In this document: positions 146-50,708 of the stretch, in pieces
Position numbering within the stretch: the first letter of the stretch is position 1
Layout of the letters: every line of letters starts with the position of its first letter
Assembly: GCA_951406725.2 (NCBI GenBank)
Contig: OX597815.1
Span: 177,072,001-177,136,000, forward strand
Direction: 5' to 3'
Length of the DNA stretch: 64,000 nt
From: Octopus vulgaris
Taxonomy: Eukaryota
Made by a program: the position numbers and the translations under genes
Notes under the pieces: generated by a model
Told to the model about the DNA's origin: nothing
What the model saw: the letters and a program-made list of their open reading frames with translations, nothing else
Databases searched by the model: none

Positions 146-222
146 CATATATATATACACACACACATATATATATATATATACACACACACATATATAT
201 ATACACACACATATATATATAT

Positions 223-13659: not shown

Positions 13660-13694
13660 ATAATTCTGGTATCATATAGCATAGAGTGAAATAG

Positions 13695-13836
13695 GTTTGA
13701 AATTCCCCCAAGACACCTGATGAAGGCTTGGAGGGTTTATCAATCGAAACGTTGGGTTAACAACAAACAAGATGAGGATAAATTTGTCACATGTAAATAA
13801 TGTACATCATTCCTCGTCTCTTAAATATAGAACTGT
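13695..13836 (+). mobile_element. 5'-truncated arm of the tRNA-head/HHR element; HHR at 13712-13758
   Basis: gacac-CTGATGA-a-ggcttg...caatc-GAAAC-GTT-gggtt; ends aaatatagaactgt like the other copies. Confidence 0.8.
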
Positions 13837-25907: not shown

Positions 25908-26075
25908 CATATATACGACGGGCGTCTTTTAGTTTCCGTCTACCAAATCCACTCAAGGCTTTGGTCGGTCCGAGGCTATAGTAGAAGACACTTGCCCACG
26001 GTGCCACGCAGAGGGACTGAACCCGGAACCATGTGGTTGATAAGCAAGCTATTTACCATACAGTCACTCCCGCGC
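25683..26075 (-). mobile_element. SINE family B, full length
   Basis: Reverse complement of the 21375 and 19930 sequences with an internal CA/TA tract. Confidence 0.9.
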
Positions 26076-26384
26076 ATATTGTATGTATATAAGAGATATA
26101 TTAACTGGATCGTCACGGCTTGAAAGTCTTTCAGATATGTCCTTTAATAATAAGGTATTAAACAGTAATAATAAGTTATGCAGAGTTCACAATAACATGG
26201 TTTAAAATGTCAATAACTCACTTGAAATAATGCGTTGGTACAGAATTATAGTGACTGATTCAAAATTGATTACTGGAATATTTAATACCAAAATTTCCAG
26301 ACCAGCAACGAGCATCTTTCTCGTGTATATGTATTGGCTCATCTCATAAATAATGTAGTTTTCTATAGTTCGTTTATTTATCAA

Positions 26385-27908
26385 AATTAAGATAAAGAAT
26401 TTTCAAAAATTTTAAATATACTCTCCTGTTCCTGGAACAATGATCTTCCATCTCTCTGGTAGACTTGCAGGGCCATTCTTCCAAAATTCTCTTGCTCGTG
26501 ACGAAAAATGTTCCTCCAGTAATGCTCTGACCTCGTCTACAGAATTCATATTTTGTCCGACCTAGTGATTTTGGAGACTGCAGAATAGATGATAATCAGA
26601 TGGGGCAATGTACGGCGAATATGGTGGGTGGGGATCGCTTCCTATTCAAACTGCTCCAGCCTTTGGTATGTTTCCCCCGCTGTATGTGGCCGAACATCTT
26701 GAAACCAAAGATGGCCGTTTTCCTTCAAACCATTCGCAGTAGATCTCCTTTGTTATCATTTGGTTCGGGTTTGAAGTTTTAAAGTGGACTAAACCATTTA
26801 TATCCCACCAAACAGAAAACAAAAGCTTACGTGGATGAAGACCGTCTTTAGTCTAGGGCGCCGGTGTTTCTCCTTTCTCTACCCCGCGTTTTCCGTGTTT
26901 GATATTTTTATAGTAAACACATTTCTCGACACCAGTCACTGTTCAGTCCAAAAAAATAGTTAATTCGAAAGACGTGACGACAAAGAAGAGCGCACATTCA
27001 CTCTCCGTGCATAACTATACACGAAAAGGTTGTGAGCCATTGGCCCAATTTGCTGACATTTCAGATGGTACACAGGAGTCAATGAATGGTTGAATAACCA
27101 AATCCAAGTTTCTCTGCTAGTTTGTCAAGTTACGATGGACATTATTTACATTCGACAGATATTTGTCCTCATCTTGTTTGTTGTTAACAAAACGCTTCGG
27201 TTGATATACCCTCCAGCGTTCTTCAGGTGTCTTGGGGAAATTTCGAACCTGGGTTCTCATTCCTAAGGTATTTTTCGATGTAATTATTATTATTTATTAT
27301 TTTCAGGTCACTGCTTGGAATCGAACTCGGAATCATGGGGTTAGTATCCCGCACTCTTAACCACTACGCCATATGTCCGTGGGCAATTATGGAGTAAATT
27401 TTAGGGCTCCATAATTGCCCACGGGCATATGGCGTAGTGGTTAGAGTGGGGGCTACTAACCCCAAGATTCCGAGTTCGATTCCAAGCAGTGACCTGAACA
27501 ACAACAACAACAACAATGATAATAATAATATCGAAAAATACCTTAGGAATGAGAACCCAGATTCGAAATTTCCCCAAGACTCCTGAAGAAGGCTAGAGGG
27601 TATATCAGCCGAAACGTTGTGATAACAACAAACAAGACGAGGATAAATATCCGTCGAATGTAAATATAGAACTGTTGTTACGATGGGATTTTGTTCCAAC
27701 AGGTTTGCAAGATGTCCTCGTCGAGCTCTACAGAACTTTCAGGATGTGGCTCGTCTTCTATGTTGTAGAATCTGGGTCGGAATTTCTGGAATCACACTTT
27801 ACACTGGCTTACGCTTAATGTCCGATCCCCATACACTGCATCAATATTCCTCTCACTTTCAGTTGCATTGTTGCAATTGAAAAAAAACCGCATTATTTAT
27901 AAGGTGAC

Positions 27909-28652: not shown

Positions 28653-29976
28653 TAGAAGTCCATTCATCGCTCTGGAGCAATAGTTGATCGTACAGTCAGG
28701 GAAGTTTATCTATGTATCCGTTATGTTAAGCTTGATAGTTAATTCATATAGCTTTGCAGGTTTCATGTGTGTGTTTGTGAAATATCACTCATTTGAAATT
28801 AAATCTTCCTACATTGATTGAAAATTCCATTTTTCATGGTGCCGTAAATTCTGAAATTATTTTTTACTAATTATCACGAACGAAACTCTTGATAAATTAT
28901 AAATAAGCTATCGGCTTTTGTCACTATTGACTTTTCTTACTTTTGCCATGTTTTATTTTATTGTATCGTTATTGGAAATATTTCTGCTGATCTTAATGTG
29001 TGTGTGTGTTGTTTCACCTTTTTCTTCCTATTTACTCTATTATTGACGCGTGTATTCATGTGCAAACTTTTGAGTCAACATTTGACTTATTGAATTTAGA
29101 ATTAATATATAAATTGGAATTCCTACATGCCATACATATTTGAGTCAAATAACATTGAACTAATATATTTTTCGAAGATTTCGTCCTCAAATTCTTGCTC
29201 CCAAGTGATTTAGACAAATTTATGTGACGTGAGTTATTTAAGGAGAATGGATCTAATGTAATTAACATTTTTAGCCTATATTAGGATATAGCATCGAGTT
29301 TGAAACGTCTTAAACGGAATATTTTGACTTCTCCGCGAATAACGAAACGTTTGTGTGTCTGATAATTACACTTTACAGAAACGTAATTATAAATGGGAAG
29401 TAATATATGTATATCCTTAGATCTTTGGGAGACAGCAAAAAGATCTTGCTGGTTATAGAGCAAGGTAGACGAGTGAAGCTGGGAAGAGATGATAAGCGGT
29501 GATTTGGCCATCTCTACTGACCCACAAAGGGAAGTACGTTACAGTTTAGGGGTTGAAACACCCGATGATTGTTGGAATAAGTGGAAAAGAAGCATCTTCT
29601 CCTGGGCGTTATCAATATGTGCTAAACCTTTCAACTAAAACCCAGTGAATACCCAGCCTTGTTTTACATACGTGCCCCTTTCCTTTCAAGTTTCTTTCTT
29701 CTCCCACATTGCTTTTTTACACATATTTCGCTCCCGGGTTCAATTGCATCTCGAGTTAATTGAGAAGGACCATGAGAAGAAGTGTGATAGAAAATTAAAT
29801 AAGATGAAAGAAGCAATGCGAAAATTGATAAAATTAAATTGGTCTTTGTTCAGAACGATTTTTTCTTTATACGGAACTATTTTGTGAGTGTATAATATAT
29901 ATAAATTTGGTTCTTGTGTGTGAATGCCTAGGTGGACTTTTAAGTGTTTTGAAAAAATAATACAGAGATTTATATA

Positions 29977-30418
29977 CATTATTTACAATGGGCGGATGGT
30001 GTTCTCACCTTGTTTCTTGTTATCACAACGTTTCGGCTGATGTATTCTCCAGCCTTCATCAGGTATCATGGTCGTATTTCGAACCCAACCCTTTATCTGA
30101 CTAATGGGGTACTCTGTTCTCATTCCTAAAGTATGTTGCTGGTGCTATTTTTGTGGATAAGAGCGGTTTCTAAGTTCAATCACAGACAGGGACGTGAAAA
30201 ATAATATGAATAGAAAAATAACCTCAGCAACATATCTTAGGAAAAAGAGCAGTGTATTTCACAAGTCAAATAAAGGGATGAGTTCGGAATTCTACCAGAA
30301 CACTTGATGAAGGCTGGAAAGTACATCAGCCGAAACGTTGCGATAACAAAAAAGATGAGGGCACCTGTCCGTCCATTCTAATTAATGTGCATAATTCCTC
30401 GTTTCAAAAATATAGAAT
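29977..30418. mobile_element. Second palindromic HHR element (diverged subfamily), 12-bp TSD
   Basis: TSD gagatttatata at 29965-29976 and 30419-30430; HHR 30022-30067 (-) with intact core; HHR 30299-30344 (+, C3U); same termini as 27139-27676. Confidence 0.85.
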
Positions 30419-49697: not shown

Positions 49698-50434
49698 TAA
49701 AATTCGGACGCGCGGCCGTGGTACCGACAATCTGAGTTCTAGTTGTTTTGAAGCAATTTTAACTTTCGTCCTCAGATAATCCGATTTATGCTATGAAGTG
49801 TATAATTAATTAGATAAATAAATAACCCTGTCTAAGTCATCAAATTTCACCGATTCTTCACAGCAAAGAAGTATTTAAAAAGTCTTCTCATTCCGCATCG
49901 TGGTCTCAGTGGACAAAATGGAAAAGTCCTCGTCCCAGAGGATTGCGAGGGAGATGCGTTTGAACAGCCCATCTAACTCACAGTGCTAGCATTTGCGGAC
50001 AGCCATCTCCGCCGCGAGGCAATTAGCAGAGATGGGATCCAAGAGCCGAGACTCCACTTACACAGGTTCGACCACAAACCTGTCAGAGAGCGTTCGATAC
50101 TTGGACAGTGGCCGATGAGATAAAGTATCAGTCAAATAGGAAAACTGGTAGGAATCATTAGAAATTTTCCCCTCACATCTTCATTAGACATGATTAAGAA
50201 ATGGAAGCATAGAAGCACGTAGATATCGAAAATCACATCGTCAATGATATTATTCGATGTTATTTTTAATTCTTGAGCTCCGAGAACTTCCTGAAAAATG
50301 CTTCACCTGCTTCCAGGATATCGAAACGTTTTTCTCTTTTTTTAATATGCATATTAGAATAGACGAAATAGGAAAATATAACTGGAGACAAATAATGTAT
50401 GGAGATTTCATACAATTTGTAGAGTAGATTATGC

Positions 50435-50708
50435 GGGCATATGGCGTAGCGGTTAAGAGCGCGGGCTACTAACCCCAAGATTCCGAGTTCGATTCCAAGC
50501 AGTGATCTGACTAATAATAAATAATAACATCGAAAATACCTTAGGAAGTAGAACCCAGGTTCAAAATTTCCCCAAGACACCTGATGAAGGCTGGAGGGGT
50601 GTATCAGCCGAAACGATGTGTTAACAAACAAGATAAGGACAAATATCGGTCAAATGTAAATAATGTAAATAACGTACATAATTCCTCATCTCTTAAATAT
50701 AGAACTGT
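50435..50708 (+). mobile_element. Solo arm of the tRNA-head/HHR element; HHR at 50576-50622
   Basis: gggcatatggcgtagcggttaagagc..gagttcgattcc..gacac-CTGATGA-a-ggctg..cagcc-GAAAC-GAT-gtgtt (cleavage triplet mutated). Confidence 0.85.

Follow-up and report, generated by a model that had tools for sequence, protein, structure and literature searches.

The window is a 64,000-nt stretch of Octopus vulgaris DNA, and the feature under study lies within a decayed mariner transposon (Transposase_1 match, E 4.7e-9). Two inverted, outward-facing copies of one repeat split the mariner and are flanked by a 10-bp direct repeat, GTTACGATGG. The repeat is the terminal repeat (pLTR) of a Penelope-like element (PLE). 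Positions in the element are numbered from +1, the first base of a tRNA-like head (27423 in the right arm, 27378 in the left arm), and position 0 exists. On this scale the ORF stop codon occupies -31 to -29, the predicted hammerhead cut falls after +198, and the tail ends at +283. The features of the locus are as follows.

26380–27905, minus strand: decayed mariner split by the insertion (ends approximate)
27129–27138, plus strand: left target-site duplication (TSD, 10 bp), mariner sequence, single in 11/11 other mariner copies
27139–27408, minus strand: left arm, a PLE pLTR from the stop codon (-29) to a tail-less 3' end (about +250/+257)
27186–27231, minus strand: left minimal type I hammerhead with a damaged core (invariant A of GAAA lost, giving GAAG) and changes in stems I/II; predicted cut between 27191 and 27190
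27318–27326, minus strand: left B box
27361–27371, minus strand: left A box (tRNA-like +1 at 27378)
27395–27406, minus strand: supposed 12-nt spacer, which is PLE 3' UTR directly after the ORF stop codon (left-arm part)
27407–27675, plus strand: right arm, a pLTR from -15 to the tail end (+283), with a deletion within the tail
27423–27497, plus strand: tRNA-Arg-like head of the right arm (A box 27430–27440, B box 27474–27482), stems lost
27497–27531, plus strand: (AAC/AAT)n linker of the right arm, its length highly variable among copies
27549–27551, plus strand: start codon (ATG) used by the PLE ORF of tandem copies, with the hammerhead in the same frame
27578–27623, plus strand: right minimal type I hammerhead with an intact core and mismatches in stems I and II; predicted cut after 27618
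27677–27686, plus strand: right TSD

The direct repeat is a single, uninterrupted sequence in 11/11 other mariner copies, some of which differ from it by a base. It is therefore a genuine TSD, and the mariner was in place before the insertion. The other copies hold the target site once and without the insertion, which upholds the earlier note's proposal of a single insertion event after the mariner. That note had described perfect head-to-head arms around a 12-nt spacer. The arms are indeed inverted and face outward, but their identity is 88.5%, and the spacer belongs to the left arm, being its 3' UTR up to the ORF stop codon; the two arms overlap by 2 nt (27407–27408). They differ from the family majority sequence at about 9 and 10 positions, only one of which is common to both. 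An origin by fold-back of one arm was rejected, because the arm with the longer 5' side has no tail and the arms share only this one variant. Both arms contain an A box (TGGCGTAGTGG) and a B box (GTTCGATTC) at tRNA spacing, identified with the general box consensus. The AAT/AAC linker is present, the plus arm has no TTTT terminator, and the minus arm carries a T4. The hammerhead motif occurs in each arm, but CUGAUGA, given for both, reads CUGAAGA in both. The feature is almost certainly an inverted insertion of two 5'-truncated PLE pLTRs, and the palindrome is a typical example of PLE insertion, now decayed. The window has three further insertions of this family: a solo copy starting at head position 0 (50434–50708, plus strand), a copy at 13693–13836 (plus strand), and an older head-to-head pair formed by 29967–30085 (minus strand) and 30282–30417 (plus strand). 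Another abundant tRNA-headed SINE-like repeat, recognized by eye and also found in many loci, lies at 25930–26070 (minus strand).

The arm is highly repeated in the genome (2.8 Gb, 227 contigs), with 4816 candidates, 40 of which were scored. In several of the first 30 loci the arm follows, in register, the C-terminal end of a GIY-YIG-type ORF, and in 28 of 30 loci selected by the GIY-YIG ORF (2 of which repeat earlier loci) the arm continues past the A box. Among 89 ORF-linked alignments the A box aligned in 70 and the B box was reached in 75; the remainder have deletions with private breakpoints or end early. A near full-length copy (L065) encodes an RT (RVT_1, E 5.8e-8) with a DKG motif and a C-terminal EN region that aligns with a PF01541-bearing relative (E 1e-14), Pfam alone giving no EN call. 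The PLE copies examined are broken, and the majority sequence is free of stops for 645 codons from the pLTR ATG. Where copies stand in tandem, the tail leads into the N-terminal part of the ORF, whose ATG is at +129 and whose first codons contain the hammerhead in frame. The unit comprises, in order, the ORF (RT, C-terminal GIY-YIG), its stop codon, a stretch of about 30 nt, the tRNA-like head, (AAT)n, the ATG, the hammerhead, the tail, and the next ORF. Two hallmarks of EN+ PLEs are present here, an RT followed by a C-terminal GIY-YIG endonuclease in one ORF and a pLTR in partial tandem that overlaps the ORF start. The clade placement is provisional: the DKG motif is present, inspection by eye showed no CxxC linker of the Zn-finger-like kind found in Neptune/Nematis, and the EN is C-terminal, whereas that of Naiad is N-terminal. 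The N-termini of P0019 (a relative with 57% RT identity) and of P0104 and P0118, which belong to neighboring clusters, keep the peptide specified by the ribozyme core and differ in the loop II residues. The arm is the pLTR of an autonomous PLE, provisionally of the Penelope/Poseidon type, and the Penelope machinery that had been postulated for it is an RT and GIY-YIG ORF joined to the arm itself.

The arrangement of copies was measured in the first 100 of 9320 exact matches to a 21-mer of the 3' part, all on contig C1, which were read in 88 loci and gave 142 arms. At least 72/142 arms form 36 head-to-head pairs, a lower bound because pairs split by long insertions are missed. Only one arm carries the tail in 30/36 pairs, and both A boxes are kept in 5/36. 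Direct repeats were found in 20/36 pairs, 13 of them 12–17 nt long. An inverted 5'-truncated partner, a one-sided 30–40-nt tail, and a TSD are a further hallmark of EN+ PLEs, and the available parts of PMC8557442 and PMC3846280 describe an inverted 5'-truncated copy and a one-sided 30–40-bp tail as PLE anatomy. Arm 3' ends are bimodal (n = 142), with 77 at 244–261, 59 at 277–283, and 6 elsewhere. Five copies that include the ORF N-terminus (L251, L257, L261, L265, L274) start at +237 to +241, in short repeats before the tail. In 17 pairs, here called crossed, the tail is on the arm with the shorter 5' side, and the window pair is of this type. One self-copying cDNA cannot give crossed pairs, and each inverted insertion therefore very probably involves two separate RT events.

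The junctions of these pairs show that the palindrome itself is not a family architecture, contrary to what had been supposed. They vary from copy to copy, and exact matches to the window junction number 3 genome-wide, compared with 364 for a fold-back centre of another type. One complex insertion (L063, G000:C9 about 106267700–106268700) shares the window junction together with five right-arm variants and one left-arm variant. This copy has other flanks, so the window junction was passed on at least once. That propagation, and the roughly 20:1 excess of short head-bearing copies over ORF-end copies, speak for an independent SINE/ribozyme family that the PLE mobilizes in trans, with the palindrome as a mobile functional unit whose transcripts form a dimer. 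Set against this are the free variation of the junctions and the position of the whole arm, with its head, linker, hammerhead, and tail, inside the pLTR of the autonomous element. A comparison of 102 short with 79 ORF-linked copies found no diagnostic base, the listed differences being gaps and decay in the ORF group; the short copies do not form a non-autonomous family that has only the tail in common with its partner. Both window arms also start upstream of the putative RNA start, and both window ribozymes are damaged. A self-standing SINE/ribozyme family is therefore improbable and already largely refuted.

Other classes were considered for the repeat. A MITE was rejected because arms and junctions vary, many arms are solo, an RT/EN parent exists, and there are no conserved TIRs or fixed ends. 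A non-LTR retrozyme or Sm-alpha type was rejected because the 88 loci contain no monomer arrays and the unit is joined to a coding ORF. Head-only copies are not a free SINE, since most of the 12 examined reflect secondary insertions into the (AAT)n linker. This linker is a landing site for pieces of RTE-type LINEs and other inserts (L215, L219, L196, L202), and its length variation separates head from hammerhead in many copies.

The head is derived from a tRNA. Its best match is tRNA-Arg(TCT) of the same genome (z 8.8, 0/300 shuffles), and it scores E 9e-7 with an HMM built from 35 tRNAs of that genome; this reference set comprises 35 distinct own-genome tRNAs of few isotypes, and Arg denotes the best among those. 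ARAGORN and Rfam called no tRNA in the arms. The A and B boxes are kept while the tRNA stems are lost: the acceptor and T stems are unpaired, and folding is no better than that of shuffles. Across copies the boxes are not significantly better kept than neighboring bases (P 0.46). The same holds for the hammerhead core (0.035 versus 0.051, P 0.09); the motif itself had been proposed, but conservation of CUGANGA/GAAA above its neighbors is not significant. Neutral decay after insertion predicts this lack of excess conservation in boxes and core alike, and the comparison does not discriminate. The largely open-access literature searched describes no PLE with a tRNA or Pol III head and no PLE-borne SINE. 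The parts examined of three cephalopod repeat papers (PMC6962438, PMC8967140, PMC13282606) make no mention of such an arrangement, and PMC13282606, which reports 190 Penelope-like families from an octopus, gives no sequences for them in the supplement examined. Head-to-head PLE pairs are known; the tRNA-Arg-like head inside an autonomous pLTR is apparently the new part, as judged from literature text.

The positions at which copies end upstream bear on what the head does. The 5'-end set comprised 136 arms after 6 that were N-flanked or started past the anchor were dropped; 34 arms ending in microsatellites are untraceable further. The background rate was taken from +19 to +75 and the ORF. Fifty-one of the 136 arms reach +18, and 40 of these end between -16 and +18, about 13-fold over background. 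Within this interval 20 of 35 at-risk arms end in the 8 nt from -6 to +1, about 35-fold over background. In 30 loci chosen by the head, a set that overlaps the 136-arm sample, 17 copies have their 5' end within -6 to +1 and 2 extend as far as the ORF. Abundance was estimated from exact 21-mer counts, which are 9320 for the 3' part, 4006 for the head, and 228 for the ORF end, 95 nt upstream. Correction for retention (32/174 for the head, 11/51 for the ORF end) gives rough estimates of 27,000, 22,000, and 1,100 copies, respectively, and a ratio of head to ORF-end copies of about 20:1. The pile-up of 5' ends and the 20:1 excess are pointers to Pol III transcription. From these sequence data the head is on balance likely to be an internal Pol III promoter, with RNA starting just upstream of +1. 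The window copy is not a product of such a Pol III-initiated short RNA. Its arms begin at -29 and -15, both of them upstream of -6, which assigns it to a longer RNA class. When 30 loci were selected by the ORF N-terminus, only 2 had an upstream pLTR beginning at the head, and in several the element continues in from further 5'; a Pol III start for the coding RNA is therefore unsupported. No T4 occurs in 2.6 kb of the sense strand (P 0.055, 0.021, and 0.0045 by three nulls). This was rejected as a sign of Pol III, since RTE-type ORFs in the same loci have 0–1 T4 per 0.6–1.5 kb and G4 is absent too.

An unlikely but sizeable alternative is that the head is a dead passenger, a tRNA-derived SINE that landed in the PLE 3' UTR, and that Pol II transcribes the element while a hairpin at -13 to +10 makes RT stop, skip, or self-prime. 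The head plus (AAT)n does resemble a simple SINE. The hairpin is strong (-9.1 kcal/mol; 2/1155 24-nt windows are equally stable), the second most stable of the region, and it is a hot spot for deletion (16 in 85 spanning ORF-linked copies). Fold-back of 2–4 nt is found in 14/15 arms called at -6, and the hairpin is the centre of the 364 exact fold-back palindromes. Palindromes at the 5' ends of pLTRs have been ascribed to self-priming (PMC3846280, available part), and the characterized pLTR promoters in the available parts of PMC2377424 and PMC3846280 are Pol II-like. In RNA-seq data of a related organism, covering about 6% of 3 raw runs, the two strands are equally represented and no position gathers many molecule starts or ends; at the window locus itself, no aligned record spans the insertion. 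The distribution of ends around the stem runs against a stalled RT, which should stop at the 3' base: 57 ends fall at -6 to +1 (48 at -6 to 0 and 9 at +1), 25 at +2 to +10 with none at +10 itself, and 1 at +11. The hammerhead fold (-12 kcal/mol) causes no comparable stop. The preference of ends for the 5' half of the stem and the lack of a stop at the hammerhead fold favor the end of the template as their cause; they are not proof of a promoter. A passenger also does not account for boxes that match the consensus at tRNA spacing though the stems are lost, or for the lack of a head-less, ancestral subfamily among the 89 ORF-linked alignments. A metagenome scan returned 1 distant locus, which has no head or hammerhead motif.

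The head could also act as a processing signal, with RNase P cleaving at +1 within a long Pol II transcript, or the unit could function as a retrozyme that forms a circle between two hammerheads. Nine arms do start exactly at +1, and each pLTR contains a hammerhead. This explanation is highly improbable: the 48 ends at -6 to 0 lie upstream of the RNase P site, the unpaired acceptor and T stems fold no better than shuffles, and no tandem arrays of a 300-nt monomer occur in the 88 loci.

A minimal type I hammerhead of the PLE type, putatively active, is confirmed by the motif and stems I and II in the family majority sequence. At the variable position of the core the family has 202 T and 95 A, giving the majority CUGAUGA of the consensus cited earlier. 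Rfam models gave no hammerhead score in the arms or the family. In a genome search for the hammerhead core, 25 of 30 loci belong to this PLE family; the pattern has 307 genome matches compared with 61 for a reversed control, so some matches are due to chance. The five core-like matches without similarity to the family or a PLE ORF are L286, L293, L299, L300, and L307 near 1500, and the search yielded no sister family with which to compare this one.

Copy ends were also examined for a footprint of cleavage. Nine arms start at 198–202 compared with 2.0 expected (P 2e-4 for this window, chosen post hoc; 0.013 for any 5-nt window). In independent loci 6/51 start at 198–202 (P 0.04) and 10/51 in 197–203. 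Pooling gives 19/93 starts in the 7-nt cut-site window (197–203), or 15/89 after removal of 4 cases of microhomology to the head (P 0.001). The excess is likely a trace of RT running off RNA cleaved in vivo, as far as copy ends can tell. A small hairpin and a palindrome are also present at the cut site and could add to the excess of ends. For the anole element, the available part of PMC11167929 reports protein-assisted cleavage in vitro that is dispensable for insertion and no RNA-seq reads ending at the cut. A dimer model for minimal PLE hammerheads is given in the available parts of PMC4209133 and the review PMC6765202. The proposal that divergent transcripts of the palindrome pair in trans to form the active dimer is unsupported. 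They would be two sense RNAs, such as any two copies would yield, with no special dimer route, and both window ribozymes are decayed.

Taken together, the locus is quite probably explained by an inverted pLTR insertion of a PLE whose tRNA-derived head likely serves as an internal Pol III promoter. The PLE endonuclease would nick both strands about 10–15 bp apart. RT would then start within the RNA at two sites, at +283 on one nick to give an arm with the tail and at about +250–257 on the other to give an arm without it. The two start sites are proposed by analogy with the anole element, for which two internal RT start sites bounding the tail were shown in vitro (PMC11167929, available part). 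Two separate cDNAs would be joined at their 3' ends via a few matching bases, yielding the head-to-head pair and its TSD. Most templates would start at -6 to +1, directed by the A and B boxes of a pLTR, and run on into the ORF. RT starting at the first pLTR-ORF junction would leave a 260–290-nt SINE-like copy in cis, requiring no separate SINE master. ORF-bearing copies, about 20 times rarer, would need a longer multimeric RNA, and some templates would probably be cut by the hammerhead. In the anole system the template must extend 172 nt into the ORF (PMC11167929, same part). If this rule is valid here, solo copies lack the needed part and short copies would derive from the pLTRs of tandem elements. 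A more far-reaching version is somewhat less likely than not: the PLE would have captured a tRNA-Arg-derived Pol III promoter and would generate SINEs of its own in cis, Pol III RNA from the 5' pLTR being copied from the internal RT start sites into about 20,000 short copies with no SINE master. Two RNAs, possibly joined as a hammerhead dimer, would prime at the two nicks, and the excess of ends at +199 to +203 would record cleavage in vivo.

The palindrome itself is nothing new and follows published PLE anatomy. If the promoter assignment is true, a Pol III promoter in the terminal repeat of a coding element breaks the usual split between Pol II autonomous elements and Pol III SINEs and provides a route for the birth of a SINE from a PLE. 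The tens of thousands of copies are a natural record of where PLE RT starts and stops. An open point of the PLE mechanism is addressed by the 17 crossed pairs, which argue that an inverted insertion takes two RT events; the surplus of copy ends at the predicted cut is relevant to the question of in vivo cleavage by PLE ribozymes. Many copies of the family are likely annotated as SINEs.

Three characterized PLEs, anole Poseidon PAc (PMC11167929), Adineta Pen2a (PMC3846280), and D. virilis Penelope (PMC2377424), share with the octopus element, in the available parts of these papers, a single ORF with RT and C-terminal GIY-YIG, a pLTR overlapping the ORF start, and a hammerhead near the start codon. 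The likeness extends to the inverted 5'-truncated partner, the 30–40-nt tail at one end, the short TSD (9–10 bp in Adineta), and palindromes at the pLTR 5' end. Unlike them, the octopus element has a tRNA-Arg-like head with A and B boxes and (AAT)n where those have Pol II-type promoters, and its copy 5' ends pile up at the head and, more weakly, at the ribozyme cut. The minimal PLE hammerheads of PMC4209133 (available part) match in the type I core, the extra base before stem II, the G10.1-C11.1 pair, and the palindromic 15.2-16.2 region. Schistosoma Sm-alpha and Sj-alpha also place a Pol III promoter before a hammerhead in a short repeated unit, but according to the available part of the review PMC6765202 they are non-coding and often tandem, with no autonomous ORF attached, whereas in the octopus the unit forms the pLTR of a coding element, inserted in inverted pairs. 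Metazoan non-LTR retrozymes (PMC7229834, available part) differ in their tandem non-coding monomers, canonical hammerheads, and circRNA. TRIMp3 elements (Cassandra, Helenus, and Ajax; PMC10886601, available part) resemble the octopus repeat in having a small-RNA-derived Pol III promoter in the terminal repeat with the boxes kept and the RNA fold lost. They are non-autonomous LTR elements with PBS and PPT; their autonomous partners are argued in the same part to need Pol II, with tRNA or 5S heads in non-autonomous elements only, whereas the octopus repeat is the pLTR of an autonomous element.
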